This document shows, piece after piece, positions 1 through 22,731 of a stretch of 26,028 bases of DNA. A model generated the notes under the pieces. That model was not told the origin of the DNA and did not search any database. It worked only from the letters and a program-made list of their open reading frames with translations. Numbering within the stretch: the first letter of the stretch is position 1; each line of letters starts with the position of its first letter. The translations under genes and the position numbers were made by a program. The stretch comes from Paramecium tetraurelia (Eukaryota): contig CT868013.1 of assembly GCA_000165425.1 (NCBI GenBank), forward strand, positions 248,001 through 274,028, given 5' to 3'.

Positions 1-543
1 TTAAAATAAATTTCAAATGATAAATTTACAAATAATAAACGGTGACACAACTGATTATAACCCTTTACCTAGAGATGTTAATAATAAAGTTAATGATGGC
101 GTTATTAGTATTAATCTTTAGTTTGGAAGAGATTAATAACTGTCTATTCTGAAAATCATATAATTAATCATTATAATAGAATAAAGTATTATCATAATTG
201 TATAATGGTTTTAAAACGATTTTTTAAGATCTCTTAAAATACATAAATAAATTAAGCCATATCTACAATTTATAATAGAAAGGAAATGCTTTAATTTATA
301 AATCCAATGTTTGCAAATAATTTGAAAGCTACTATGATAAAAATTAAGAGAATAAACAGTGAACTAAATTAATCTATAGTAAAACCACCCTTAAGTCCAA
401 ATTCTAAAAGAAAAAATAAAATAAATATTTAGAAATTTGACTAACGTTGGAAGTATAACTGGATTAATTAGTATACTATCTAATAATTCTCACATATTAA
501 ATTCTGGTCTGTATATAGAACAGAAGGAAAATTGATTTTCTGA
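1..543 (+). CDS. 3' end of a hypothetical protein (partial)
   Basis: In code 6 the frame starting at 301 is open (NPMFANNLKATMIKIKRINSELNQSIVKPPLSPNSKR...EGKLIF) up to TGA 541-543. No recognisable domain, and the 5' structure was not resolved. Confidence 0.4.
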
Positions 544-1125
544 CAAGATAAGAATATGCACCGAATGCTTTATTATAAAATACTTTTAAACTTTATATAT
601 ATATTGTATACAATTATAAGTTTAAATATATAGAATGTAAAATTAAAAATATTTGTATTGAAATTTCTTTAATTTACTCAAAAACAGCCATAGAATTATT
701 CTAGTTTAAACCATATTTAACCAAAAAATAATTCGATTAAGTAAATTTAAAGAACACATTATAAGAATTTTTGATAAAGAAATTGAATTCTGATCAACTT
801 TAGATAAATTGTATAAAATTGATTATAAAAAAAAAAAGTTTATTATGAATTCTCAAAATAATTTTATTCTTTTAAGGAAGCCTTGAAATTCATATATTAA
901 TTAGACTGATTAGCATGTTATCATAAATTCATATCCATTTATTCTTCTAAACTAAAAGAATTGAAGTAGTCAAAAAAAGTTATGTTTGGTTATATCTCAA
1001 ACATAACCATTTTTGTTAAAAATTCTTTGTGTTATGCTTTTTAGTTAAATTATGGAGTTATATGAATATGTTAAACAATCTGGATTGATTTCCTTTTATA
1101 GTTATTTAATATATTGAATTTATTT

Positions 1126-3027
1126 ATGAATCATCCATTAGTAAATATACCATTAACTTAGGGAATAAAATGTAGAAAATTGTGTCAAGCTATTGATTTA
1201 TATGGGATAAATCCAAATTTATTGATTTTTGGTAATCAAAAATATTCAAGTATACTTGGAAGCCTCCTGACAATAATAGCTTCGACATTGACATTCGGAT
1301 ATTTAGTGTAGTAAGTCTAAGAATTGGTGTACAAGTAACTCCCTTAAACAATATTATCAGAACACTTAGTAACTGAAACTTCTGTACACATTTATAATAT
1401 ATAGCCATTTCCATTGGAAAATCATAATTTTACATTATCAATATCAGTTGCTAATATGGAACAAAATCCATTAAAGACAATTGATAAATACTTTACAATT
1501 AAGGTTGAAAATTGTTAAAGATCAAGGTAACTTAATACAACAACTAATAAAATCGATGTTGTTAATACGTATGCGTAAAGTTATAAATTAGATGTATTAA
1601 TTATCCAACAGAGGCTTGCGCGTCAGATAATTTCGTAACAGATATCTAAAAAGAATATTTCAGTAAAATTCGATTAGGAACGGCTTAGTGCATCAAGAAA
1701 GATATCTTGTAAAGTAAACCACCTGTAATGATATATCATCAAATTAGGTACTATAAGGGATTGTTTCAGGAAATTTATACTCCTACATCACTATTAAGTT
1801 TTCAGCATGTAAGAATAGTACAGAGAAATAGGATTGTGCTTCAAGGGATGAGATTAATAAAGAATTAATTAATGGTTATTATGTTGTTCATATGAGTGAT
1901 TCTCTAATTTAAATGAGTAACCCTGAGAGTATCCAAAAAAACTTCATAAAAATGTAGTATACATAATTTTCAATATCAACCTCCAAAACTATATATCAAG
2001 GATTCAGAATTATCCAATCATTGACTGATGATGGTGTATTAATTAACAATGTTGTAGAAGACTCATTTTTGGTTCAATAGTACTATTAAGAATCAACTGC
2101 AGATTATAATGAAGATTATTTAATCTTACATAGTCTAATACTTGATAATAAATACACCAATTATTAAAGATCATACATTAAGTTACTGACCATCTTAAGT
2201 AAGATTGGAGGATTGTGGTAATTAATATTTATTTTCTTTGGTATTATTTCTAAACCATTTATTTTAACTGAAATGAAAATCAATTTAGCAAATAAATTAT
2301 TTAGATTTCAGTAAGAGGAGAATGATCTAACTTAAAGCATAAAGAGAGATGTGAGTATGAAATCGAATGTAGAAAAATATGTGAGATAACCATAACATAA
2401 ATTGTCAAGTTCAATATCAAGTATTATACAATTTTTATTTGGGTGCAACAAGGCAAGAATAAAATAATTGGATTAAGCAAATCTGAAAATCCAAGAAAAT
2501 TTAGATGTGGTTGAAATAATGAAAAAATTTTAGGAATTTGACAATCTGAAATCGATAATTTTGACAACTAATTAGAGAGTCTTATTTGATATTATTCCAA
2601 TTCCATTAATAACGAATATATAAAATAAAATTGAAACAGATTCATAATCAAGTAATTTAATTATTTTAGTAAAGGTTAGCGTCAGTCCAAAGATAATTTT
2701 GAAAGATTTATTGAGGCTTATAAATCATTTTGTTAAATTCGTGATATGTCTGATACAATTGAAAATATTGGATAAAAAATAATTACCCATTTGGATTAGG
2801 ATATGATTAAACTGTTTTATGAATATCATTTGGACTCAGAATAGAAATAGGTTCTATAATTATTATCTGAAGAGAGGAAATCTAAAATTTTAGATAGAAA
2901 CTATCTAGATTCTGAATCAAAAATAAGTTTATCTCCATGTAATTCAAATCATTAAGAAGTCCAAGCCGTAAAGATATTTCTTAATAACTAACAAATTAAA
3001 AGAAAATTAGGAAGTTTATAGATGTGA
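1126..3027 (+). CDS. Ciliate-type membrane protein with two TM segments and a large intervening loop
   Basis: ATG 1126; AIDLYGINPNLLIFGNQKYSSILGSLLTIIASTLTFGYLV (TM1); ILSKIGGLWQLIFIFFGIISKPF near 2190-2260 (TM2); cytosolic ENLDVVEIMKKFQEFDNLKSIILTTNQRVLFDIIPIPLI; TGA 3025-3027. Candidate introns at 1141-1161 and 1384-1404, with others not mapped. Confidence 0.75.
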
Positions 3028-3404
3028 TAAATTCATTCTTTAATCACTATTTTTTTCAATTTTTACCCTAAATTTATATTTTCTTTCTAAATACCTCATT
3101 TTTCTATTCATTTATTTTAATTGGAAGATATTAATTTAAAATAGTCACAATAATATTAAGGTTTGATAATTAATATATAAATAGAAATGAATACATATAC
3201 AATTTCATTCTGAGTAAAATTTAGTTGAAAAATAAATAAATAAAGAAAAGGAAAGTATAAATTATTTGAAATGTGGATTGTATAATCACATAGACTAATC
3301 AAATACGTAATGAGTATTCATAAATTATTTATATAGGAGTTGTAGAATTGTGGTTGAAATAAAATTAAATGAAATAAAATAATAAATTATATATAATATA
3401 TAAA

Positions 3405-3737
3405 ATGTCTTTCAAATTCATATTGAGTAATAAGAGTCAATATTCAAAGGATCGCAATGTTAATATAGATTATAGTCCTGTTTTTAATATGTAAAACTAA
3501 TAAATATTGATTTAGTTAGTTGTAATAAAAATTGAATATTTTTCCAATTTTTAATGAAGATCATTAAGCTACAACTCCTGGATTTATCATTGAATATGAG
3601 AAAGTATGAATTGTTCATATATAAATTTAGCCTGCGTATGAAAGCAATTTAAACTATCATTAACAATTATTTAATCAAAAAATTGAATAATTATAAATAA
3701 AAAATAAATAATTGGTACCATTATCTATGAGTATCTT
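3405..3737 (+). CDS. Hypothetical protein, 5' part (runs into N gap)
   Basis: ATG 3405 MSFKFILSNKSQYSKDRNVNIDYSPVFN. The frame is maintained by GT-AG introns 3491-3515 (25 nt) and 3604-3630 (27 nt). Confidence 0.5.
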
Positions 3738-4388
3738 NNNNNNNNNNNNNNNNNNNNNNNNNNNNNNNNNNNNNNNNNNNNNNNNNNNNNNNNNNNNNNN
3801 NNNNNNNNNNNNNNNNNNNNNNNNNNNNNNNNNNNNNNNNNNNNNNNNNNNNNNNNNNNNNNNNNNNNNNNNNNNNNNNNNNNNNNNNNNNNNNNNNNNN
3901 NNNNNNNNNNNNNNNNNNNNNNNNNNNNNNNNNNNNNNNNNNNNNNNNNNNNNNNNNNNNNNNNNNNNNNNNNNNNNNNNNNNNNNNNNNNNNNNNNNNN
4001 NNNNNNNNNNNNNNNNNNNNNNNNNNNNNNNNNNNNNNNNNNNNNNNNNNNNNNNNNNNNNNNNNNNNNNNNNNNNNNNNNNNNNNNNNNNNNNNNNNNN
4101 NNNNNNNNNNNNNNNNNNNNNNNNNNNNNNNNNNNNNNNNNNNNNNNNNNNNNNNNNNNNNNNNNNNNNNNNNNNNNNNNNNNNNNNNNNNNNNNNNNNN
4201 NNNNNNNNNNNNNNNNNNNNNNNNNNNNNNNNNNNNNNNNNNNNNNNNNNNNNNNNNNNNNNNNNNNNNNNNNNNNNNNNNNNNNNNNNNNNNNNNNNNN
4301 NNNNNNNNNNNNNNNNNNNNNNNNNNNNNNNNNNNNNNNNNNNNNNNNNNNNNNNNNNNNNNNNNNNNNNNNNNNNNNNNNNNNNNNN
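3738..4388. other. Assembly gap (N run)
   Basis: Run of n bases. Confidence 0.99.
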
Positions 4389-4395
4389 AGTACAA

Positions 4396-5357
4396 TCAAG
4401 ATAAAAAATAAGGATGTTTCAAAACTTCACTGCAATTAATTCTTTTTGAAGAGACTAAATATATATGTGTTAGACAATAAATGAATTAATAAGGGATCAG
4501 TTTTCTAATTCAAAACAAAATTAATAAATATCATACTTAGTTTCTTCCCTTATAAATGTGGTATATAAGGTTAGCATCCCAATTCTGCCTTCTCTAATTC
4601 ATTAGGAGTACCCAACAATTTACATATTTCTACTATCTAATCAACAGTATTATGTCCAAAAAACAATTGTTTACCCAATTCCAAATGAGCCAAAATACAA
4701 CCAGCTGCCCATATATTGATTTTCGTATTATAAAATATCTATCCAAATAATAATTCTGGTGCCCGATAAGCTCTAGAACATACGTAACTCAAACTCTTTG
4801 ATCCATCGATTTTTTTTGAACTTCCGAAATCAGCTAGATAGATGTTACCACTTTAATACAAAATGTTGACTGGCTTAAGATCTCTATGCATTACCTCTTA
4901 TTCCTCCAAATATTCCAACGCTTAAAATATTTATTTGGCTACTCTTTTTAATGGGACTCTTATTGCATTTTTTAGATTTCCTTGATATAAATCCATAACT
5001 AAATGCAAATATTTGACTTTATTTTCAACAGTATAATAATAATCTCTTAGAGGTGCTATATGAGGGTGATGCATATTCAGATGTATTTCCAATTCCCTAT
5101 TGATTTATTTTGGATCTTGGAGTACTTTCTTTATTGCATAATAACCACCATGCAGCTTATTTTCAACAATGAAAATAGTGCTATAACTACCTTATCCAAT
5201 TTAGTCCAATATTTAATATTTTATGTTGTATTAATGTTCTATTGATTCAGAGACAAGTATTTAGGAATCTGATTCTCTCTTGAGATGTCGATAATTAATT
5301 AATGTTTCTCACTTGGGGTTACCTTCTTTTTTTTGATTTAATTTAATTCAATTACAT
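4396..5357 (-). CDS. GSK3/shaggy-like CMGC Ser/Thr protein kinase
   Basis: GQGSYS G-loop, [68 protein letters not shown], then TGA at 4398-4396. The start is uncertain: ATG 5357 joins the kinase frame only through a 34-nt intron (5312-5279) or a frameshift. Confidence 0.9.
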
Positions 5358-5486
5358 ATATTTTTATTTAATATATCAATATAATTCAATTATTTTTCAC
5401 AGTTATTCTACTTACTTATTATTTGCTGATTATGTACTTTTTATCGAATAATTATAAACCTTCGAATTGAATATAATTTATATCAA

Positions 5487-7085
5487 TGAGAATTATGATT
5501 TTAGAGATCTAGGATTACTTTACAAGCATGATTTTAATATGATTAAAATTAGAAGAGCTTAAACTCAATTTCTATCTGTTAAATAATGTAATATAAATGT
5601 AGATATTTCTCATTTTATTAATTTTTTTAGATCCCTCTCAAATTTAGATGTTTCAAAAAATATTATTTTTAGCATTAGATGCATCTAAAAGATTGCTAAA
5701 ATAGCAGTGTTTATTTATATTCCAAATCTGGTTTTATAATTATAAAATGATAATTCCTTTTCCAAATTTCGCATTTTAATTATCGTCTAATTTATAACAA
5801 TTAACTCTTATCAAACTCATTTTGAGTATTTACCTGCTCTAATTTATGGCTCTTTTTTTGCTATAAGATGTTTAATTCTGTTGGAACCATTAATCCATAT
5901 TTATAAAAATTAAATTCTACTTTATTATTCATTAAAATGAATTGTAATTAAATTTTTATTGATTAACTGAGATGTCCTGATTTTTAATCAAAGAATAAAC
6001 ATGCTTCACTTAAACGCCCTCCAAAATACTCATAGAGTTTCATAATGAATTAATTAATTCATAAACCAAGAATTATAAGGAATTAATATAGTGTACAGAA
6101 ATATTCATCATCAACTGATGTTCTTTGCTAATCTTTCGAATAACCATAAGTTTTGAATTTAACAATATCATAATTAAGGGATAGGAAAATTTTAAACAAG
6201 TCAAAGAAGACAGGTTTATGTTCAAAATCTAAAAGTAAGGAGAAATATCAACAATTGTCTAGTTAATATCACGAAAGGAAACGATCAAACACCTACCATA
6301 TCAATTCTCTTGCTAAAACAGCGTTGCTATTTGTAAATCGTTAAGATAAGAGAATGAAAACAATTGAAAACTCGGATAATCTTTTTGACCTTAAATACTT
6401 GGAATTATTGCGAAGTACTTAATAGAGTGGCAAGCATAATCCTTTAAATACAATTACAACTTTACCAAATTACAATTATGAATCGACTTTGATTTCTTGT
6501 GTGTCTTAACCAAGCACCTCTTTGTCAAATTAAATCAATTTGGTTAAAGAATATGTTTCTGAAATTAATCAGTACAATGTTAAATGGTAGGAATCTGAGA
6601 AAATAACAAAGAACATCCCAAAATTATTATTAGAAAAATATGCTACTTCAGATGACACGTCATTATATTTAGAATCCTCAAGATTTAAAATCGAGAGGAA
6701 CTTTAATCAAATTTATAAATCAGGTAAGTTTCGATGGCTATATCCTGGTGAAGAAGCAGCCATTTTAGAAGGCATTGAATCATTTCTAAATGAATGTTCT
6801 AAAAAGATATCCTTATTGATGATGAGCATATAGAAGATTTTAAAATTGATTATTACTTAAAAGAGGTTAGAATATTTATTTAACTATCCTATCTGCATGA
6901 AGTAAATTGAAGCTCATTGGAAGATTATGGCTACACTATTTAAATTGAAACAGCAAAATCATATATACAAAAATTAAGTAACAAATAAGTTATGGAAAGA
7001 CATTCAAGCATCAAAAACATTATTTTTAGATTTAAATCTAGAGAATAATAAATTGGCTCTTTTTGTCAAGCAATTATAGCATTGA
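5487..7085 (+). CDS. Hypothetical protein (start uncertain; weak LRR-like segment at the N-terminus)
   Basis: Long code-6 reading (SLSNLDVSKNIIFSIRCI...SGKFRWLYPGEEAAILEGIESFLNECSKK...ALFVKQLQH) ending at TGA 7083-7085. The 5' boundary was not resolved. Confidence 0.55.
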
Positions 7086-7149
7086 ATTTTAAAGGATTTT
7101 TCAATATTTTATTTTTCATCAAAATTATAAAAAAAAAATACGACTTAAT

Positions 7150-9350
7150 TCATAAAAACAAATTAGCTAAAAGTAATCTCTTTTTTCCTCTCCTCATAAC
7201 TTTTGTTGCATCTCTTCTCGAAACCAATTAGTATTCTTCTGGAATCTAAAACAATGACTTTATTTAGTTATCTTCCATATCTAATTATTTGTATGCTTAA
7301 AATGTCACTACAGCATCAATAGTAAAGTTGATAGGAATTTCAATTCTAATTGGAAATCCTTTATCGTTAAGTAATTACTTAACACTCTCATTTGATAAAA
7401 CTGTTTTTAAAGATTACATAAACTCATTCCCATTTGATAGCATTTTTATAATAGGAAGAAACTGCTAAAAATTTAATGGAAATGCTTGACTAATATAAAG
7501 TTAGCAAGATTCTGATGATTCTATATATTTAATAAATATTTTACTTTTTTGATTCTCATTTTTTATATTGCCTTGTATTTTTTTCTTTATTTATTCATTT
7601 TCTTACTTAAAAGAAGGTGAATTAACAAATAATTAATCTCCTACTATTTGACTTGTAATTTATTCCAAATTAAATCTTGCACTTGTAGGATTCTAATCCA
7701 TAGATTAATTTAAATATTAATCTAAACTCATATAATAATGTTGTTGATGCTTCTTATTGAAATGTTATGATGTTTGTATTCGAAATTCGTATTTCTAACA
7801 GATCCAATTATGTATTTTTTAGCTCACGTAATTTCCAAAGAAATTCTTGCTTTTAATTAATTCACATCCAATAACCTTCATATCTCCACTTACACTTTCA
7901 CAATTTACCAAGTCCTTCAAAATTTGATTCTTTTCTTCAGGATCTATTTCTTGCTAATTTAATTTTATAATCTTACAATAGGATAATAGTATATCTTTTT
8001 CGCTCTATTTAAAATAGTGACAAATTTACAATTCGAACTATTTTCCTTTTTCTAAACTGATCCCATTAATGGATTATAAATTACTGTGAGATCTCTTCTT
8101 TTAGTTTTATAATTCTTCGTCCCTGCAAAAGTAGAGTCCAATCTCAAAGATGAACCTTCATTAATAAACATATTACCTCTCTTATAGATTTTGTAAGTAT
8201 CATTGGGAGTGAACTTGGAGATGAAAGGAATAAAGCTAGATTTGAATTCCCACTTCATTTCGAGATAGAAATCATTGATTTTTAATAGTTCTTAATCAAT
8301 TTAATTGCGTTCCGATTACATGTCAAATAATTTTTTGGAAACTAAGTAATCAAACAATAATGATGTAGTCAATAAGTCATTTTGAGCAACAGTTTCTTCT
8401 ATTGGACTCCACCCATCAGTATCTTTAATAGAAGGGTCAGAACCATTTGATAATAATAATCGAATAGTTGAAAATTGGTTCTATTGTTACTACAATTTTA
8501 CAGCTAATAGCAGTGGTGTATTTCCATTGATATCTTTCATATTCAATATATCAGTTCTATACTCTTTTTACAATAGCAATACAATTTTAGTCAATAATTA
8601 AATGTTTCTATTAAAAACAGCTTCAATTATTTAATTTAAAAGGTCTTTTTCATTTAGTTTAATTGAGGGTTGTTGAGCAAATGAATCATTACATGGAACA
8701 TCAATAGTAAATTGACTATTATTTAATGATTATTGGCATGATCTATTATTTACAAAATTAGAACTGCTATTATTATTGATGCTAGTTTAATGAACATTTG
8801 TTAAAAGGAACATTAATGGAGAATTCACTTATTTAAAGGATTGATCGAAAGAATGGTCACCAACTTCTTTAGTCCTTTTTATAAAACTTAGTGTATTATG
8901 ATTGCTTTCGGAAATAGGAGATGATTATCTTTGAATAGAAGGAGATTTATTTAACTTAATGGATTAATCATCTTTGTTTATTTAGATTCTGCTAATTTAT
9001 TTTCCTTGCCAAAACTTTTTAGATTTTATTTCATTAAACATTTTAATTTTTTCATTAAAGAAACTATTCTTATATTAGCATAGAATGTTTGATTTTTTGT
9101 TCTCATCTGATATATCAAATTCTGATAGTTATATTTCAGAAGAATCATCGCAAGATGATTCAGAACTTGATTCCTCTCTTCTTTTATTGATTTTAAAACA
9201 AGTCTGTGATTTACGAGAACTAGTTCCACTAATACTCCTGAGACAAACCGTCTTATGCTTAAATTTCAGTGGTAGATCATGTAATTTATCTAATTTCTCT
9301 TTTATAGAATCTTAATAAGCCTCTTCATCGCTGTATTCGAAAGTTTACAT
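7150..9350 (-). CDS. ANKRD13-family protein (ankyrin repeats plus GPCR-chaperone-type domain)
   Basis: ATG 9350; ankyrin motifs KDINGNTPLLLAVKL and DPSIKDTDGWSPIEETV; DFYLEMKWEFKSSFIPFISKFTPNDTYKIYKRG|SSLRLDSTFAG (intron 8176-8156); FPLNFQQFLPII; GFPIRIEIPINFTIDAVVTF; TGA 7152-7150. Confidence 0.85.
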
Positions 9351-9449
9351 CTGATATATTAATATTTTTAATACTCATAATTTATAATAACAAACATGAA
9401 ATCTAATCATAATTGACATTCAACTAGTATAATAATTCTCAAAAATCGT

Positions 9450-10143
9450 ATGAATTAAACTCCGTAACGATTAGCACTTAATGCAACCAACTTCTCAAGC
9501 TATGTTTCATAATTTTTAAGCACTTCCAAAGGTAGAGATAAATTTATGGCAATATTATAATATTCATTTGATTTTTATCATAGTTGCACAAAACATTCAA
9601 ATTTACTCTATGATCAATAATTAGGTTCATAAAATTAATTCAAATGTCATGTAGTAGTTGAAAAATTCAAATATGTATTATACATTTTTCATATATAGAG
9701 TATTTCCTAAAGCCGCAAAATATTCACTCTACATTTAAATATACTATGTAAGTGATAACTTTTTGTGGATTATTTTAATTTTAGCGTAAAGGTATAATAT
9801 ATTTATGTTAGAATCTTAGCAAAATATTGGAAAAAGAAATAGAAGCAAGATGGAAGTAAAGGAAAAATTCTTTTTCCTAAATGAGAATAATAATCAATAT
9901 GTTGAGATTAATCATATTTATAATTTTAGAGTCAAGTAATTATTGACTAAAATTGATAATTAGTAAAGAGAATAGGGTTTTGTTGAATATGACAAAAATA
10001 CTGACTTAAGATACATCAAAAAGATATAACAAACATCGATTAAACTGAAAATGAAGAGGAGGTTTGAAATTCTGGATTTAATTTTATCGGTTCTAAGATT
10101 CTTCATGCTGACTAAATCTTTAAAAATAACAGAGTATCAATGA
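9450..10143 (+). pseudogene. PEX11-like peroxisomal membrane protein, disrupted
   Basis: ATG 9450; FLSTSKGRDKFMAILQY (PEX11 N-terminal GRDK motif); SISQSRKIF followed by TGA 9753-9755. YYVSDNFLW resumes in another frame, then EARWKQRKNSFS and RRFEILDLILSVLRFFMLTKSLKI, with TGA 10141-10143 before any final TM helix. Confidence 0.6.
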
Positions 10144-10266
10144 GAAAAAGATTGTTATTTAAATTGACAATTCTTCAAAGTTGGAGATTTAGATAAATTT
10201 GAAATTAAAGAAAGGATTTGCATCATCTGGTAAAATGGATGATTCGATTATTTAAATTATATTATA

Positions 10267-11102
10267 TCATGGTTTTGGTTGATGGAAATTAGTTTTGCAT
10301 CCTTCACTACATCTAATGCACTTATTACAGCAAGTATAGTAATCATCTGCTCCACATTTTTTACAAGAATAAAATTTTAATTTGCCGCTGTGAAATAAAC
10401 AAGAATCCTAAATATTAGAATAAGGTTATACTATATAATTCGTTCTGGGGTTATATAATAGATGACATTATTAGCACTCCTTTTTCGAACATTTTTGTAA
10501 TTGCAATTCAGCATATTTAGAAATTGATTTTAAAATTTATGAGATGAGTAAGTTTTTTTGATTTCCAAGCTCTTCTTTTTATTTATGCAAGTCTTTTAAT
10601 AATTAAGGGTCATTTTATTCTATTTTTGGTGATACTTCTTCATCAAATTGCATTAATGAATTTTGGGTATCCATTCCTTGATTATGAATTATATTTGTAT
10701 GAGATGGTTGTTTTTAATCTTAATGCAGAAACTCATATAAATAATTTACGGCATTAGGAACCAACTACTTTTATTACTCAAATACAGAACTAGTAAATAT
10801 CTGTTCTCTTTCTTAATCAATCAATAATTATTGCTGCTTTAAGTATTCCATTCTTGTTATTTATTTTTCATATTGCTATTTAGTTTGTAATAACTTCTGC
10901 TCCTCTTCTTTCTCGTTTTAAACATATTCATCCAGTTTCTTTTATAATACATCATTCTCTTTAACCAGTGATTCTATTTAAAATCAATTAAAGTACGAAT
11001 TGTAGTATTGTAACTTTAAACTATTAGTTGAGCATCCTATTCACTCATCATTGGATTATCAGATAAGACACTGCTGGTAAATGAGTTTGTCTCCTCTTGC
11101 AT
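10267..11102 (-). CDS. Coiled-coil protein with a C-terminal CHORD-like Cys/His zinc-binding domain
   Basis: ATG 11102 MQEETNSFTSS; Q/E/K-rich heptads; C-terminus ECQQCHLLYNPRTNYI|DSCLFHSGKLKFYSCKKCGADDYYTCCNKCIRCSEGCKTNFHQPKP*. Introns near 10995-10975 and at 10431-10408. Confidence 0.75.
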
Positions 11103-11155
11103 TATTTTAAAATAATTTAATTATTTTGTCAATAATAATTGATACACGTATAAAT

Positions 11156-12034
11156 ATGTTTAAGATTTTGGCCTTACTCTTAGTTGTTAAACTCTATGCA
11201 ACCGATCTAAACACATAGAATGCTGAAGCTGAAGCTTAATAATAATCACAGCAATCAGGATAAGAAATTGAAACAGAAGGACAGAAGTACATCAATCTAT
11301 TAACAAAATAGAGTAATTGCAAAATTAACTGCTTGTTGGGTCTTATCAGTTTAGGAATTATCAGAAGAGTAAAAATAGGTGAATGAAATTATAAAGAGTT
11401 AATCTAATTAAAACAGAGAGTCCATCTTTTATAAAATATAGACAACAATGTTGGAGGATTGTTATTCGAGGGCTCCAGAGGAAGAATTGAATAATGTGAT
11501 GAAATCCATTTAGGAAGATAAAAAGAATTACAAATCATTCAAATAATAATTACCTGATTTTAGTTTTGATGTTTTTAATAGTTCTTCATTTGATTGGACT
11601 TTTACCAAAAATGATGAAACTTTGATTAAATATATTAGGGTATAAAAGATTTATATTATCTCTTAGAGATTTGAGGAATGGGTTGCTTCAAAGAACACTG
11701 TTACAAACACAGTTCAATAGCCAAATTAGCAAAAAAGAGTTTTCGATGAGTTAAAGAAGAAAATTTCAGAATTGAGTAAAAAGAGCTAAGCCAAGGAATT
11801 AGAAACTGATAATAAAGATTAAATGGATAGATATCAATTTTATCTCTCAAAATAATAGGGAATGAGAGATCCAATTAATTATCTATTTGCAGGAATTGCT
11901 ATTTTTTGTTTCTGTTTAGTATTTTATATAGGTATTATACATTAATTATTTTAGTTTATTCCAAAGTAAATTAATCTAACTAAGATCCAAGATTAGATAA
12001 AAAGAATAAGAAATAAAAATAAAAAAAAGAGTGA
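11156..12034 (+). CDS. Type I membrane protein (signal peptide, C-terminal TM, basic tail with KxKxx-like end)
   Basis: MFKILALLLVVKLYA signal peptide; luminal domain with two Cys (LTACW, LEDCY); TM YLFAGIAIFCFCLVFYI; tail DKKNKKQKQKKE*, TGA 12032-12034. Short introns near 11286, 11640 and 11932. Confidence 0.7.
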
Positions 12035-12069
12035 TTACATATCTGCATTTTTATTAATATTTTATTTAA

Positions 12070-13046
12070 ATGTAATAATATTCACCGCGAGCAATTGTTT
12101 GGATGACATATCTAAACTATTTGCCACAAGATTAAGCTCAATAATTGCCATTCCTTAAAAAATAATAGCAACTCTACAATTCTTATCTGGATGAACTCAT
12201 TAAAAAGGAACATTTAGAGATTTTCACTATTTTGAACAATATAGACTCTGATCAGAATTCTCTCAGTTTTAATGAATTTTTGAACATAAAGACCCAAGTC
12301 GTCAATTCATGTATGGATTTTCATGAATATAATGAAAATGAGCAACTATATGAATTGATCGAAAAAGATGTTCCGTATCTTTTTTATACAATCATTTTAG
12401 TCGAACTTTACCAAAACAATCTATCCTGAAGGAACAAACCAATGCCAAGTTCTCTTAATATTTTTTCACTGACTAATATAAAAGGAGAAAACAACAAAAT
12501 GACACTAATCCAACCCATGCAGATATCCTCATGCGAATTTTATATATTTATGGCAAACTTAATCCAGCTATTAAATATATGTAAGGAATGAGTGATCTGC
12601 TTGCTCCTTTGTATTTGATAATCAAAAATGAAACAGACACATTCTTTTGTTTTACTAAAATTATGGCTCAAATTAAAGATGCATATATTTCCACTCTAGA
12701 TTTTACAAACACTGGAATCAGAGGGCTCTTACTCAAATTTGAAAAATAATTCCAATAAAAAGAGCCAAAGTTATATAGCTATTTGCATAGCCTTGGTATT
12801 CATCCTTATATGTATGGATACAGATGGATTATAACTTGCATGACACGTGAGTTCTATCTTGATTAAATCTATTAGATTTGGGATCTAATGTTACATGATC
12901 GCAATATCCATGATTTCATTATCAAATTTGCCATTTCCATTCTTAAATATTTGAAACCCTAGTTAATTGAAGCTGATTTTAAATTGGCTTTTGATATTTT
13001 GATATACAGTGAAAAAGATGTCAATCAAATTCTCAATTTTATGTGA
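12070..13046 (+). CDS. TBC-domain Rab GTPase-activating protein (TBC1D13/TBC1D22-like)
   Basis: RAIVWMTYLNYLP; Arg finger IEKDVP|RT (intron 12375-12400); Gln finger KYMQGMSDLLAP with Q encoded by TAA 12582; TFFCF; YRWIITCMTREF; IWD; TGA 13044-13046. Confidence 0.93.
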
Positions 13047-13758
13047 TCCTATTAGTTTATACATGTTTATACTATCTAATTAATTATCTATCTAATTATT
13101 AAATTTAAAATTTGATTGACACTTTTAATCAATCATTTAAATATAATAGATTATTTTTCTATTTTTCGGTTTAAAACCATGTTATGAATGAATTTATAAA
13201 AACTTTAATGTTTCAACTCAAAATTGGTTTTAGGTAAATCACTCTGAATCACTTAAAATTTCTTATTAAGATAAATAGAATAAAATGATATGGACTAATT
13301 TATTCAAATCAATTTTCCTTTTCTTAATCTGTTCAAAAATGAGTAAATTTAACACTTTAATGTATTATATCGTTTTTGAAATAAAAAATCAATATACCAA
13401 AAAATTTTTTTCTATAAACTATAATAAATTATATATCTGTCGAGAAGCAATAACAAAGATTAAAATTTAATTGTAATCAATCTCTTCCATCATCATTTTC
13501 TTTACTTCAACCAATAAATCAAGAAATATGAATTATTTTTATATTATTTTAGAATCAATTAAAATATATTCCAATAAGTCTCAAAAGTAACTTACTATAA
13601 AAACTTTAAATAATTCTGGACTATTTATTAAATTAAACTGTATTTTTACAGATTATTTTTCAAAAGTTTAATTAATTTTATAGAATATGTATCCAAAACC
13701 TCAATTTCAATCAATAATAATATAGATATAAATGTAATTAATTAGTATTTTAAATAGA

Positions 13759-16200
13759 TCAACAAAATGATAATATTCTAATATTTCTCTAAACTATTTT
13801 GTTCATTGTTAAATCTCTTCTTGTTTTGAACTTCCTTTTTTTCAAACGACTTTCAATAAATTATTCAGCCAATGTATTCTTTCTTGTTTACTTTATTAAA
13901 GGAATAGCTGGTTGATATAAAGCATCCTGTTCTTTAAATTAATTACTTTCTACCGACGAGCTCTACTACAAAATATATTATTTTGTTTTATTAAAACTAG
14001 TCTATGTCCAAGGTCGACATGGAGCTGCTGTTATATTCACATTACTTCCATGTTGTTGATTATCCAAAAATTATTAATTTCTTGATTTAATTCTTCCTCT
14101 TTAAGTTGAATCATTCGGATTATAAAATGAAGATTAGGTTACTTGTTAATTTTTTTGGGCAGCCTATTTTTCTGAATTTGGAATCACTTTAATGGTATTT
14201 GATTAAATTTTAATTTACTTTTTGGATTAGAGAGTGCTCTCATTTTTTAATAATTGAACACTTTTCTCCTTTTTTTAAATATGTATTTTATCTCTACCTT
14301 TTTCGAATATTTCGAAACTACATTATTCAATTATTTTTCTATTGGAATTTATTTCTTTCAATTAAAAATGAGTAAATGATAGTCTTTGATCTTCAATTAT
14401 GCTTAATTCATTTTATAAACAAAGGATTAAATGTTTATTAAAATATCCATAATTTAATAAAATAGAATCCAAATTTATTTACCTTAAAATGATCTTCTTA
14501 AATGACATTAAAACTAGCATTTGAGACTAACTTCCAATTATTATTTTTGGATCCAAATAAACTTAAAAATCGTTATAATAATATTCATCTCCCTCAATTT
14601 CAATGATTGATTATTAAAAATCATCATTTTAATATTTAAACTTACTAAGTTCTCCTGAACTGGTTAGAATAAAAATATTATTTTTAAGAGAAAGCCATTT
14701 CTTAATTTCAATTTTGAAGGTAAATTACTTTAATAATTAAATGTTGTTGTCTTTCATTTTTAATAATTTAAAAACATTATGCTCGTCAATTGTTAATATG
14801 CAGATATCATTATTTATTACTTTGAATATAGTGGAAAGTTTAATCGAACATCTATTATAATTTAATTCAGAAATACTTCTATTAAAATTAGGTAGTTTGA
14901 ATAGCAGTATTTATCCTTGTTAAATGTAAACAAATAAATAAACTTAATTAAAATCAATTTCAATAAATTTGAGATTTATTATTTTATTTTTTACTAATGC
15001 TCCTTCGCTGTTGTGTAAGCGATCACCACTTATAGCAATATTGATTGTTTCCCCTTTAAATTTAAGGATATCACTTGTTTCAGTCAAAAAATAATAAGTT
15101 TCTTAAACAAAATGAGCTTGAATAATAGTTTGCTTTGTTTTGATGTAATGAGTATTAAATTTATTGGGGGATGACATTTAAATTAAGCTATTGTTATCAA
15201 ATAAAAATTAAGGATCAGAAATTCCTTCTATTAAACATCTAATATCAGATTTATGCTAATAAAGTAAGCGTTGCTCTAATTGCCTATTTAGGATATAAAT
15301 ACTTTGATGAAAGCTTGCAAACAACCTCTATTAATTGATTATAAATAGGTTTTTATACTAAAGACCTATTTTATAAATCTATAAACATTGCCATGTTTTA
15401 ATAGAAAAGAGAGATATTTCATTATTTGAAGAAGCCCAAAACATATTCTCATCATTTTTATCATTATGTAATTAATCAACATTTGATCCGTGTTCGATCT
15501 CAAAAATATTAATAGGCTGATTTTAATTGTACAATGTCCAAGTATAAATCTTCCCATCCTTTGTACCACAAATAATATAATACAATGCAGGAAAATATAG
15601 TAAACAAGTTATACTATTTTTGAAATTGGTTATGTTTGCTTTTTCTGATATCAATTAATAATTTTGAGAATAGACTTTTAGTGTAGTTTATTCCCATAGA
15701 AATATTAATGAATGTTATAAAGAGAATCCAATGAAGTATTTATTGGAATTTGTAAAGCATAATTTGTTCAATAATATTACTTTAATCTACAATGAAGTTT
15801 TTTTGATTTCCATAAAAATCTACTCTATTTTACTATCTTAAACAACATATAAGGAAATAGTTTCATCTATAAATTGAATTGCAATAGGGTAGGAGGTAAT
15901 GACAGATATTTTATTGAAAAAGACGAGATTTGATGAAAGAATATAGATTTACCAATCATCAAACAGAATGAAGTATATATCATATTTCTTTGAATAAGTG
16001 ACTTTAACAGGCTTATAATGTTATGCAAAAGTATTATATTGAACGTAATGGCTAACCGAATAGTTGAGTGTATTTATATCCTGTAACAATTTTCCATTCA
16101 TTACTAGTAAATTCAAAGAGGACTTATATAATATTTGTAAATCTCCTTTTATGCTTGTTATTTCAGTTGGAACGTAACCTAAATTTAAAGTTAAAGACAT
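13759..16200 (-). CDS. Large hypothetical protein, beta-rich (possibly a divergent beta-propeller) with a low-complexity C-terminus
   Basis: ATG 16200 MSLTLNLGYVPTEITSIKGDLQILY, with many short hydrophobic beta-strand-like segments. Frame continuity was checked over 14400-13759, ending at TGA 13761-13759. Internal introns were not mapped. Confidence 0.6.
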
Positions 16201-16273
16201 TTTATATTAATTAATTAAAAAATAATGAAGAGATAAATCTAATAAAAAATATCTGAACATTTATATATTAACA

Positions 16274-17276
16274 ATGGATTAAAATTATATAGCTCCAGAT
16301 GCATGTGTCCTTGAGATGGACTCTGAAGTTTATATTCACAACATTAAAGAATTGAGAGTTTCGACAGGTGATAAAGTCAAAATCTGTGCTGTTATGAAGG
16401 CAGATGCTTATGGACATGGAATTGAAGTTATGATGGATACTTTTGTGAAATCAATAGTCGAATATATTAGTGCTATTGACAATTATGAATTTAGAATCTT
16501 GTAAAAATGGTTTAAAGAACACAATGTTCAACATGTTAGATTACTTAGGATTGCACCAGACACCAAAGAAGAATTAATAGAATTTATCATTAATAATTGG
16601 GATGTAGAGGAAGTCTTTGGATCATTAGAAAAAGGCCAATATTTCTCAAAAATTAGTTCTGAGATATCCAGAAACTTGGAAGAGAATTGATGTCCAAATA
16701 TAATAAAATAATATATGTCCAAAACGCACATTAATGTTGAGACTGCCATGGGTAGAATGGGTTTTAGAAAAGTTGGTGATTTCAAACTCACCCAATAAAT
16801 CACTAATTTAAAAGTAGTGGGAATTATGACACATCTAGCCAGAGAATATGAGGCTCCTCCAAATGATGAAATAGCCACTAGAGCATAAGTGGATTTATTC
16901 AAAACATTCATCTCTTAATTAAACTTAGAACCAACCGTCATTAAACATGTAGCTAATTCAGCGGGCTTTGACAAAAGAAATATACATAATTTGATATGGT
17001 TAGAGCTGGCTCTATTGCCTATGGGGAAGATAAAAATTAATTCTAAGACCCAAGAGGAATAATTAAACCTATTTTTCATAAATGAAGAACAAGTGTTGTA
17101 ATTATTTTAAGATTCCTCCTAATAGTCCTATTGGTTACAATGGGATTTAAAGAACCAGATAGAGAATCAACAACAGCAATACGAGTTGGTTGGATTCCCA
17201 TAATATGGTTTTAGTTAGGAGAAAAAGATTCCCTAAAATTGGGAAGACCACAAAGAATATGCTTGTTGTTGATATA
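16274..17276 (+). pseudogene. alr: Bacterial-type PLP-dependent alanine / broad-spectrum amino-acid racemase, disrupted
   Basis: KICAVMKADAYGHG (PLP Lys codon 16397), HINVETAMGRMG, VVGIMTHLA, HVANSAG, FDMVRAGSIAYG, PPNSPIGYNG (catalytic Tyr codon 17136), IGKTTKNMLVVDI. In-frame TGA at 16688 and 17083, and frame changes near 16970 and 17105. Confidence 0.88.
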
Positions 17277-18062
17277 AAATAAATTAAAAATCTTTAAATT
17301 CTACACTTTATTATATAAATTGTTATAATTAAGGATATTTAACAGATGAATTTTTAGTTATTAAACTTTAAGATAACTTTAAACTACCCTTTTTTCTTGG
17401 TGTAATTTTAGTTTCCAAACTAATTCAAATAAATTTAAACAATATAAATATCCAACGTAATTTTTTATGATATTTAAGGAGCTAAAAAGCCAATCATCAC
17501 TTTTAAATCAATTATTATTTTTTCACCCTCTAATATATAATTTAAGGATTCAAGTGACATTGGTAATTTATTCCAGATATCAAGTTAATAAAAAAAGGAG
17601 CAGCTTGAATTTGACAAAGTTCTGAATACTTTTGATTAAGCGACAAGCAAATATTTGGATGATGCATAAAAGTAATAACTATTATTACAATAGTCCTTTC
17701 AAATCTTTATCTACAGTTGTGAGAAGAGAAATATTAGATAAAAATGATGTCTAATTTGATTAATTTAATCTGAATATGATAAGATCCTAATTTCTGCTTA
17801 TATTTAATTATTTATCTTCAATTATTATTTTTTTATCATTCTTCATGATGCAATCTGTGACGAGTTTTTGATAATTGAACCACTCGAAAGAATTCAATAT
17901 TCTTCATAAACAAATTTATAAAATAAACAATCATAAATTTCAAGATTATGATTGAATAAACAAAAAAGAGGTTCTAATCCAGGGAAAACATTTCTTAATT
18001 ATTGAAAAAAAATTAGCATATATATTAATAACTTGATTAATAATTAAATTCTATTTAATCAA

Positions 18063-18599
18063 TCAGAAAGCGTAATATGCTTAAATCTTTAAAAGTGACA
18101 TATGCTCGTATAAAGTATTTCCATCTTTGTTGTAGAATCTTAATTTTGAGACTGATAATTAGGAAAATTTGACAGCCATTACACCTGGAGGGGCTGAACC
18201 TTCATATATTAATGTTTCTGTCATTCTATCATCTCCAATTGCAAATACTTGCATATGGGTTATCCTGCTATCATAATCGTACATCCAAAACCTAATCTTA
18301 TTTATTAGATATGATTATAGAAATTCTATAATTATTGTACCATGTAACGGAACGGCAACATGCCCAACTACTCCATTATATGGAAAATAAATTAAATCTC
18401 TTATAGGACTATTATCTATAATTGGCACTATAAACATATTAGTCCTAGCAGTTATTTACATTGCTCCATTATATAATTGGATTACATTCTTGTAATTCCT
18501 TCTTAATATTGCCTTTGATGTAATATTGTCTAAACAAAAAGTCCCATTTACGTCTAAGGCAAATATGCAGAGAATGAAAAAAATAAGAAATATTCTCAT
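18063..18599 (-). CDS. Secreted ~178-aa protein with a discoidin/F5-8C (galactose-binding-like) type domain
   Basis: Intronless 537-nt code-6 ORF; signal peptide MRIFLIFFILCIFA; IIIEFLQSYLINKIRFWMYDYDSRITHMQVF and VSKLRFYNKDGN resemble the BTBD9-type F5/8C pattern. Confidence 0.75.
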
Positions 18600-18816
18600 T
18601 CATTCATAATTAAAAAGACATTTTTTTTTGTCCATTAATAAAGAAAGTCCACCATATTAATTAAATTTACTTCAATAAAGTTCCAACAATTATTTCACTC
18701 ACTTTCCAGAAAAATTATTTAATTGAAAGAATAGCTGGAATTTGGTAAAGAGATTATAAAGAATAATCTGCTTTTAAAATTTACCTCAATTCAATATTTA
18801 AAAAATTTCTGTAGAA

Positions 18817-18966
18817 NNNNNNNNNNNNNNNNNNNNNNNNNNNNNNNNNNNNNNNNNNNNNNNNNNNNNNNNNNNNNNNNNNNNNNNNNNNNNNNNNNNN
18901 NNNNNNNNNNNNNNNNNNNNNNNNNNNNNNNNNNNNNNNNNNNNNNNNNNNNNNNNNNNNNNNNNN
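18817..18966. other. Assembly gap (N run)
   Basis: Run of n bases. Confidence 0.99.
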
Positions 18967-21729: not shown

Positions 21730-22731
21730 TCGATTATTATGGAGTTGATATTTCTGTATTGGCCCAAAACAAGTTGATTTCTCTATAGTATTTATAATAT
21801 CTTCCAAGATATCCATTCTTTTTGTTGATGTTATATTCGTACTCCAATAAGTTAGTCACTTTTTGTTCTTTTTAGTTTCAAATTTCCTTTCTTCGTTTGT
21901 TCGTATAAATATATTTAGTAAAACAATATTAATATACAACTATTTTTATGAATACTTCCTTTCTCTTCCCTATTATCTTTTGTTATAGAATTATAAAATT
22001 ATTGCCTAAATAAAAAAGTTTTTCCACAAAAATATGAGACACTGAATTGGGAATTGGTTAATTTTATCTAAAATTTTAGATTTAATATTTTACTTTTAAT
22101 CAAATATATATTTGAAATTGATGTAGTTAGGTCGCTAAAATGCTAAATTCTTGAGATGAAATCTGATGAATTATATTTGTCAAATATACCTTAAAGCCTT
22201 TTTGATAGATAGTCAATTTAATGACTTTTATTAGTAAATAGTAAAACCGATAATAAAGATTCCTCAAGNNNNNNNNNNNNNNNNNNNNNNNNNNNNNNNN
22301 NNNNNNNNNNNNNNNNNNNNNNNNNNNNNNNNNNNNNNNNNNNNNNNNNNNNNNNNNNNNNNNNNNNNNNNNNNNNNNNNNNNNNNNNNNNNNNNNNNNN
22401 NNNNNNNNNNNNNNNNNNATTCCAGAATTATATCATGTGACAGATCGGTCACTCCAGTATTTATTACTTGTAAACCACATATAATTAATATTTCTTCTTC
22501 ATTTTCACAACAACTCAATATTAGGGAGATTGAATATTAGTTTAGTTCATACAAGTTAGAGTTTATAAGTTGTAAACGTAATCAGAACAAAAATAAATGA
22601 GGGGGAACTAGTCCCAAAATATTATGACTAAAACATTCTAATTTTAGCATCCTCAAAAATAGCAATTTCTTTTTGATCTTCGATAATAGAAAATGATGTG
22701 CGCCTATTTCAAAAAATTCAGCATCGCTCAT
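21730..22731 (-). pseudogene. Probable degenerate hypothetical gene spanning the gap
   Basis: Protein-like code-6 stretches on both sides of the gap (LILSCCENEEEILIICGLQVIN; LEESLLSVLLFTNKSHQIDYLSKRLQGIFDKY; KRMDILEDIINTIEKSTCFGP) that I could not join into one frame. Confidence 0.3.
22269..22418. other. Assembly gap (N run)
   Basis: Run of n bases. Confidence 0.99.

Follow-up and report, generated by a model that had tools for sequence, protein, structure and literature searches.

What is a bacterial-type amino-acid racemase doing in the DNA of a ciliate, and does it still make an enzyme there? The question is raised by positions 16274-17276, on the forward strand, of a stretch of Paramecium tetraurelia DNA (GenBank assembly GCA_000165425.1, contig CT868013.1, positions 248,001 to 274,028) that is 26,028 nucleotides long and is called the window below. 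The initial annotation, made from the letters alone, had seen here a racemase gene of bacterial type integrated into a ciliate genome, and had suggested that a bacterivore could use its product to salvage or detoxify D-amino acids from prey. The first part of that proposal stands and the second does not. We hold with high confidence that the segment is the pseudogene of a fold-type III racemase that an ancestor of several species of the P. aurelia complex gained from a bacterium; because this copy is a pseudogene, any present-day use of it in this genome, such as salvaging or detoxifying D-amino acids from prey, can be ruled out.

The family assignment is straightforward. Read with TAA and TAG as glutamine, the segment is a coding remnant of the fold-type III (alanine-racemase) family, and tblastn aligns the racemase of P. 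octaurelia to the window at E 2e-118. The ciliate-code translation of 16274-16981 gives 236 residues, with one TGA and seven TAA codons read as Gln, and the profile search that had been suggested for such a translation recovers the N-terminal barrel domain with Pfam Ala_racemase_N (PF01168; E 1.8e-23, 83.8 bits). Models of the whole protein score below their cut-offs on this piece, 69.9 bits (E 1.8e-19) against 168 for NCBIfam alr TIGR00492 and 78.1 bits against 434 for the best NCBIfam model, NF009879, and Ala_racemase_C (PF00842) gives a weak match to one C-terminal piece (E 0.019, 15 bits, below the cut-off of 25). Every motif of the series by which the initial annotation had recognized the family is present, spread over three frames: AVMKADAYGHG (16388-16420), MGRMG (16748-16762), GIMTH and HVANS in frame +2, DMVRAG in frame +1, and IGY and NMLVVDI, the latter ending at 17276, in frame +3. 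The codon of the lysine that binds pyridoxal phosphate (PLP), at 16397-16399 within AVMKADAYGHG, lies in the same segment, 16274..16969, as GRMG, GIMTH and HVANS; the residue, Lys42, aligns with K74 of BsrV and K34 of E. coli Alr. The TAA at 16502-16504, singled out early as an in-frame glutamine, is indeed Gln77, and the P. octaurelia ortholog has Gln there too.

That ortholog, a 398-aa protein (P0004), is the closest protein to the window copy (80% identity over the whole query) and provides the standard against which the damage can be read. It is intact, passes TIGR00492 (175.1 bits against the cut-off of 168), keeps the C-terminal beta domain in frame together with the catalytic pair Lys42/Tyr282 (K74/Y299 of BsrV), and its AlphaFold model has a mean pLDDT of 93 and the racemase fold, with TM scores of 0.82-0.84 to solved racemases. 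Compared with it in a frame-aware alignment, the window copy has five frameshifts, two in-frame TGA codons and several small deletions (Table 1), and the tblastn match is split accordingly, running in frame +2 over 16274-16978, in frame +1 to 17193 and in frame +3 over 17112-17282. The repair of the frames that had been advised thus takes the motif series through three frames and past two TGA stops to a C-terminal end that is missing. The first stop, TGA 16688-16690, sits inside a net 24-nt insertion, and copies of a 9-nt direct repeat, ATGTCCAAA, border it at 16690-16698 and 16715-16723; the second, TGA 17083-17085, falls within the frame +1 segment where the P. octaurelia and P. pentaurelia proteins have a tryptophan (W262). 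The codon of the catalytic tyrosine (17136-17138, in IGY; Y282 in the ortholog, Y299 in BsrV, Y255 in E. coli Alr) survives in the frame +3 segment, out of frame and behind both stops, and the window copy has no C-terminal beta domain in frame. Downstream of it only pieces follow, DRESTTAIRVG in frame +1, GFPQYGF in frame +2 and RRKRFPKIGKTTKNMLVVDI in frame +3. A remnant of the last 57 residues was sought in 17277..17800 and none was found there: the best local score was 27 against a shuffle mean of 27.3, with 157 of 300 shuffles reaching at least the real score, and the best local candidate, NQGYLTDEFLVIKLQ against NQVQLGDEVVIVGKQ, was suggestive by position only and was rejected, its score being no better than chance. 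The longest frames left are a 138-aa stub and out-of-frame sequence. With disabling lesions relative to an intact ortholog, which are moreover reproduced in sequencing reads (see below), the window copy is to be read as a unitary pseudogene and makes no racemase.

Table 1. Features of the racemase pseudogene and its surroundings, in window coordinates
Position	Strand	Feature	Basis or remark
13759..16200	-	conserved Paramecium gene, 813 aa, weak WD40/beta-propeller Pfam matches	head to head with the pseudogene
16201..16273	.	spacer of 73 bp from the divergent neighbour gene to the racemase ATG	ORF coordinates, neighbour start
16274..16969	+	N-terminal two thirds of the pseudogene (ortholog residues 1-224), frame +2	Pfam; 80% identity to P. 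octaurelia P0004; frame-aware alignment
16679..16723	+	insertion or replacement, in frame and 24 nt net, compared with the ortholog and bacterial relatives	8-residue gap in ortholog; relatives shorter
16970..16971	+	frameshift 1 (16970), frame +2 to +1, within ortholog ANSAAL/VKKKYTQFDM	frame-aware alignment
16972..17112	+	frame +1 segment (KKYTQFDMVRAGSIAYGED...RTSVVIILR)	tblastn, frame-aware alignment
17113..17156	+	frameshift 2 (17113-17114), then frame +3 segment PPNSPIGYNGIQRT	frame-aware alignment
17157..17276	+	frameshifts 3, 4 and 5 (17157, 17191, 17213) with small deletions	tblastn, frame-aware alignment
17277..17800	+	expected site of the last 57 residues, including the BsrV Pro391 equivalent	no remnant above chance

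The gene has not fared uniformly in the sister species. The protein model of P. pentaurelia (P0189) has 316 aa, and P. primaurelia has fragments of 152 aa and 56 aa (P0012/P0195); the models of both species run into out-of-frame sequence, at places that differ from the breaks in the window, which suggests either independent decay or faulty gene models. The P. pentaurelia model also shows H48Y in its AYGHG motif. Short Logan fragments of 40-107 aa were considered as further pseudogenes and rejected, since ciliate genes are probably truncated at TAA and TAG when genes are called with the standard code.

Where the gene came from is a question for the bacterial relatives. Searched with a profile, 1.84 billion representative proteins yielded 119 at E <= 1e-30. 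The best of them are metagenome proteins at 38-44% identity, and a Sec-like or Tat-like leader is present wherever the N-terminus is complete. Relatives are also encoded in 173 stretches of species-representative bacterial genomes. The nearest come from low-GC (30-44%) metagenome-assembled genomes (MAGs) labelled Burkholderiales, Pseudomonadota or 'Neisseria', at 50-55% identity (loci L001-L006 and L010), followed by Francisella sciaenopsi and F. philomiragia at 48% and a Lentisphaerae MAG at 47%. The bacterial genes adjoin ordinary bacterial genes (queFCDE, hisF, argS, ppk); no conserved neighbourhood hinting at a pathway was seen among the six loci examined, and a literature search at the level of titles and abstracts for a characterised member of this Francisella and MAG clade yielded nothing relevant. 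Hydrophobic N-terminal leaders were found in all seven full-length bacterial relatives examined. The Paramecium racemases, by contrast, begin about where the mature bacterial proteins begin and lack the signal peptide of an exported protein; in the window, where the absence of a signal peptide had been remarked on from the start, the ATG is preceded by an in-frame TGA, and in the alignment Met1 falls immediately after the leader sequences of the bacterial proteins. As a side observation, one Logan protein of 1420 aa (P0039) has a racemase domain of this clade embedded in it (42% identity, residues 277-657) and is thus a fusion.

For the phylogeny, 44 of 80 loci were taken, one or a few per genus, from which three with frameshifted matches (L008, L020, L038) were then dropped; to these were added every fifth representative protein that passed a length filter, together with Alr and DadX of E. 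coli K-12. A quick tree of 91 rows and a careful tree of 52 rows, the latter inferred with LG+C20 PMSF, agree on the placement of Paramecium and on the sister relation to the Bsr group. In the careful tree, the Paramecium pair (100/100) lies inside an 11-row clade of Francisella and MAG sequences (100/96), which is nested in an 18-row (98/93) and then a 24-row clade (100/99); the last is sister (97/94) to a 13-row Bsr clade (100/100) that includes the V. cholerae BsrV ortholog and Bar-type sequences of P. putida, and E. coli Alr and DadX stand outside both. The gene is thus nested within bacteria, as the description of it as bacterial-type implied.

The sister relation bears on the one rival reading that concerns the enzyme rather than the locus, namely that the ancestral protein was a true member of the broad-spectrum Bsr family. 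The initial annotation had thought the remnant closer to the BsrV-like subfamily than to typical Alr, and the comparison with solved structures agrees. By sequence, P0004 matches Aeromonas Bsr (4bf5, E 1e-42), a Thermoanaerobacter Alr (4y2w, 2e-40), the lysine racemase Lyr (4dza, 3e-38), BsrV (4beu, 7agz and 4beq, ~1e-37 to 1e-36) and Bar (4dyj, ~1e-36) far ahead of E. coli Alr (3e-18) and DadX (3e-15); Aeromonas Bsr, Lyr, BsrV and Bar make up five of the seven top sequence matches and all of the top seven structural matches of the AlphaFold model (TM 0.82-0.84), the best identity of the clade to any structure in the Protein Data Bank (PDB) being ~30%, with no close solved match. The BsrV numbering that we use for single residues is confirmed by the V. 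cholerae open frame, which, read from its second ATG, has K74, R173, N174, Y299 and P391 at those places. At four positions the clade of Paramecium and MAG sequences goes with Bsr and against Alr and DadX: at 119 it has Arg, as Bsr does (L, M or V in typical Alr/DadX); at 299-300 Tyr-Asp/Asn/Glu (Bsr Tyr-Asp/Glu; Alr/DadX Tyr-Gly); at 346-348 Ser-Met-Asn (Bsr Ser/Thr-Met-Asn; Alr/DadX Met-Asp); and at 391 a small residue, Thr380 in P. octaurelia (Bsr Pro/Ala/Thr; Alr/DadX Tyr, EcAlr Y343). The bacterial members of the clade have T, S, V, C or A at the last position, with a single Tyr, and the region is lost in the window. In PMC4542195, the residue at Pro391 is tied to an opened active site and broader specificity.

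Other positions part the clade from Bsr. Position 174 is Met, where Bsr has Asn and Alr/DadX L, I or M; the one-residue insertion of Bsr at 169 is absent, as it is from Alr/DadX; and at 165 the clade has Asn, Bsr Ala, and E. coli Alr and DadX a Lys, which we take to be the carbamylated lysine. In all 22 full-length clade rows tabulated, the Arg of 173 is kept (R153), followed by Met (Met154) and with no insertion at 169. Espaillat and colleagues (2014), who defined the Bsr fingerprint, reportedly found the Arg173-Asn174 pair to be functionally important; the PDB entry 4beq is titled as the R173A, N174A double mutant. Moreover, although NF009879 is the best NCBIfam model for the remnant, P0004 reaches only 190.7 bits with it, against the cut-off of 434 and the 529 (P. 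putida) and 767 (V. vulnificus) of true members, identity to BsrV is ~28-30%, and the tree places the Paramecium group beside the 100/100 Bsr clade, not in it. Judged by these residues, scores and branches, strict membership of the Bsr family is already contradicted, and we consider it unlikely. What remains of the early suggestion is kinship: best matches by sequence and fold, a sister position, and no grouping with ordinary Alr or DadX. With the Bsr enzymes (BsrV, Aeromonas Bsr, P. putida Bar, P. mirabilis Lyr), the Paramecium racemase shares the two-domain fold-type III architecture and the Lys/Tyr pair, and its bacterial relatives are exported, as Bsr is; the Paramecium protein itself is leaderless, however, and the window copy is dead. 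With the housekeeping and catabolic alanine racemases, E. coli Alr and DadX (TIGR00492, NF002970), it shares the family, the catalytic residues and, in the intact ortholog, a score just above the TIGR00492 cut-off, but these fall on the other side of the tree and differ at 165, 299-300, 346-348 and the gating tyrosine.

The same tree speaks to the direction of the transfer. That the gene is an old, vertically inherited eukaryotic one, or that it passed from a protist to bacteria, could draw on the long Paramecium stem (0.67), on the low-GC MAGs in which the nearest bacterial relatives are found, and on the many metagenome relatives, some of which could be eukaryotic (P0041, which is AT-rich and has no leader, is an example). 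The tree that had been proposed with Alr, DadX and Bsr sequences shows no vertically inherited eukaryotic clade, however: several successive nodes enclose Paramecium in a bacterial group that spans at least five phyla, three database searches found the gene in no named eukaryotes other than species of the P. aurelia complex, the genes of the bacterial relatives belong to operons typical of bacteria and have Sec or Tat leaders, and no intron-like interruption breaks the colinear 700 nt of the window copy. We therefore regard vertical descent or reverse transfer as highly improbable, and a transfer from a bacterium into Paramecium, with a single origin, as the likely course of events.

Could the breaks be artefacts, or be bypassed by the cell? 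Of 24 sequencing runs listed, 14, from seven studies, contain all sampled words of 15300-18300, and 18 contain at least half. Four runs (X1, X10, X15 and X16) were compared in detail over these 3,001 bases. X1 and X10 (studies P1 and P4) each yield a single contig of 12,434 nt that covers all of them with 0 differences and 0 gaps; in X15 and X16 the stretch is covered by several identical main contigs plus variant contigs. The breaks in the racemase copy are thus not assembly errors. The variant contigs hold a second, ~4% different version of 16409-16775, which belongs to another haplotype or strain, or to a related species, present in the two samples; in this version, 16690 A>T turns the TGA at 16688-16690 into TGT, an extra C stands behind 16667, and several changes restore P. 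octaurelia residues (T56S, Y71C, D96A, K120Q). A higher contig depth of X16, a run labelled 'RNA?', over 16108-17117 was considered as a sign of transcription and rejected, as the depth is per contig, the material may be DNA and the second variant adds to it.

A functional gene whose breaks come from assembly errors, tiny introns, unexcised internal eliminated sequences (IESs), read-through of TGA or programmed frameshifting is the rival reading to be weighed here. Paramecium introns are very short, and IESs, the segments that Paramecium removes from its germline DNA, are bounded by TA. Besides the TGT variant of X16, a 28-nt TA-bounded insertion behind 17711 (17711/17712) is present in X15 and X16 and absent from X1 and X10; one of its ends fits the Paramecium IES end consensus TAYAGYNR, and it looks like a germline IES retained in those two runs. 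The breaks themselves are of another kind. The offsets are 1-2 nt, among small deletions, and not segments of 20-30 nt running from GT to AG or from TA to TA; the stretch from ~16685 to 16741 lacks any AG at which an intron containing the first TGA could end; and in the four runs compared no joint from splicing or excision was seen across the pseudogene, so the explanation by introns or IESs was rejected. Contigs from other studies carry the identical sequence, the TGA at 17083 replaces a Trp kept in both P. octaurelia and P. pentaurelia, the C-terminal 57 residues were not found, and the X16 version with TGT has the frameshifting extra C as well. A working gene is, on this evidence, something to which we attach hardly any credence.

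The position of the pseudogene in the host genome is equally clear. Its head-to-head neighbour (Table 1) has an open frame with 51 TAA/TAG codons, and orthologs at 94% identity in P. octaurelia, 90% in P. pentaurelia and 78% in P. sonneborni; the spacing of 73 bp given in the initial annotation holds if this neighbour starts at ATG 16200, and the resulting 813 aa equal the length of the P. octaurelia ortholog. Genes for a protein kinase and for a protein of the ANKRD13 type lie in the flanks. In a check of synteny, the neighbour and the racemase homolog lie on contigs of equal size, 296,109 in P. octaurelia and 356,910 in P. pentaurelia, which suggests that in each species they share a contig and that the linkage is conserved. 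Gln is written TAA six times and CAA three times in the racemase (TAA at six of nine), and TAA or TAG 50 times and CAA or CAG 22 times in the neighbour; the TAA at 16886-16888 encodes Gln197, which is nearly invariant across the family. The likeness to the neighbour in Gln codons, with TAA at such a position, indicates that the gene has long been written in the host code. Bacterial contamination or a chimeric mis-assembly, which an overwhelmingly bacterial family and a GC content of 32% against 24-25% in the flanks might bring to mind, is a practically negligible prospect, for the seven in-frame TAA codons of 16274-16981 correspond to Gln in the ortholog, other runs have single contigs in which the segment is joined to both ciliate flanks with 0 differences, orthologs are annotated in three other Paramecium genomes, and the nearest bacterium is only ~55% identical. 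The early argument for integration over contamination is thereby upheld.

Some observations concern the remainder of the window, whose overall GC is ~25%. Runs of N, marking scaffold gaps, occupy 3738-4388, 18817-18966 and 22269-22418, and the very low GC of 3500-4500 is an artefact of the first of these. Downstream of the pseudogene, an open frame of 178 aa at 18063-18599 (-) has an N-terminal hydrophobic leader and no Pfam match. A scan of 13000-18800 against Rfam gave no matches.

Several points weigh against our reading of the locus as the pseudogene of a transferred racemase gene. The N-terminal part of the window copy is only mildly degraded, with private changes in 5 of 111 comparable columns against 1 in P. 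octaurelia and 3 in P. pentaurelia, and for this reason its long terminal branch in the careful tree (0.18 versus 0.004) should not be over-read. X1 and X10 carry the organism label of the window, and their near-identical contigs possibly have the same source as this DNA; they therefore exclude sequencing and assembly error and leave room for polymorphism between strains, of which the second version in X15 and X16, with its TGT at the first stop, may be a case. Both the intactness of the P. octaurelia gene and the breaks in P. pentaurelia and P. primaurelia are taken from deposited protein models and may therefore include annotation errors. Finally, with identities of only 47-55% to the nearest bacterial sequences and a long Paramecium stem, no specific donor can be named.

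With these points in mind, the history of the pseudogene may be sketched as follows. The donor would have belonged to an uncharacterised clade of exported racemases, carrying a signal peptide or Tat leader and sister to BsrV, Bar and Lyr, which is now held by Francisella, low-GC Pseudomonadota MAGs, Lentisphaerota, Omnitrophota, Spirochaetota and Desulfobacteraceae. After the transfer the leader was presumably lost, so that the product would be cytosolic, and the gene would have taken on the codon usage of the host, with TAA and TAG for Gln. In P. octaurelia the copy appears to have stayed intact, with its catalytic Lys42 and Tyr282 and, in place of the gating tyrosine of strict alanine racemases, the small Thr380. 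The copy in the window has since decayed, through its five frameshifts, two TGA codons and small deletions and the loss of ~57 C-terminal residues. The ancestral enzyme, like that of P. octaurelia, would be a cytosolic, dimeric, PLP-dependent racemase of the two-base type, using Lys42 together with Tyr282 of the partner subunit. From Thr380 at the gating position we infer that the intact enzyme may accept substrates beyond or other than alanine; that it accepts more than alanine is a proposition to which we would give about even odds. It is plausible that the ancestral and P. octaurelia gene would serve to exploit or remove the D-amino acids of bacteria taken as food.

A bolder history would have this exported sister family of Bsr captured only once, by an aurelia ancestor, stripped of its leader, made cytosolic and recoded. 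Three or more species, among them the source of this genome, P. pentaurelia and P. primaurelia, would now be losing it independently, with breaks at different places in each, P. octaurelia would keep it, and the bacterial clade would possibly form a new specificity class. We put this forward tentatively, as a scenario that falls somewhat short of an even chance.

The transfer of an Ala_racemase_N gene from bacteria to P. tetraurelia is in itself not new, having been in print since 2016. Naranjo-Ortiz et al. (2016, PMC5169069) include Paramecium among the transfers of this domain into SAR (stramenopiles, alveolates and rhizarians), and supplementary Table 2 lists A0BSC6_PARTE with Bacteria (Proteobacteria, Firmicutes) as donor and the comment 'low alignment length'; this entry may correspond to the window locus. 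As in the other eukaryotic cases, such as alr1/alr2 of S. pombe, Adineta vaga and the events of PMC5169069, a bacterial racemase gene resides in a eukaryotic nuclear genome. The parts of PMC5169069 consulted do not describe the gene as a pseudogene, mention an intact ortholog or relate the protein to Bsr, and literature searches on alanine racemase and on racemase transfer in Paramecium turned up nothing else of relevance. To this the present analysis adds that the copy is a pseudogene, with an intact ortholog, a conserved linkage and a position as the sister of Bsr.

For the present D-amino-acid metabolism of this genome, a dead locus says nothing. Its value is comparative: a bacterial racemase was fully domesticated in a ciliate, with host code, host codon usage and a conserved neighbourhood and with the export signal removed, and later became dispensable in some of the sister species, a case that can help to date and to model what becomes of transferred genes once the whole-genome duplications of Paramecium have taken place. 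Beside the Bsr family, moreover, it draws attention to a clade of exported bacterial racemases with a sparse distribution. If the single capture and repeated loss are true, the aurelia species would offer a natural series of gain and then loss of an enzyme for prey-derived D-amino acids in a bacterivore, and the bacterial clade, with Thr, Ser or Ala in the place of the gating tyrosine, could be a new specificity class of secreted racemases.

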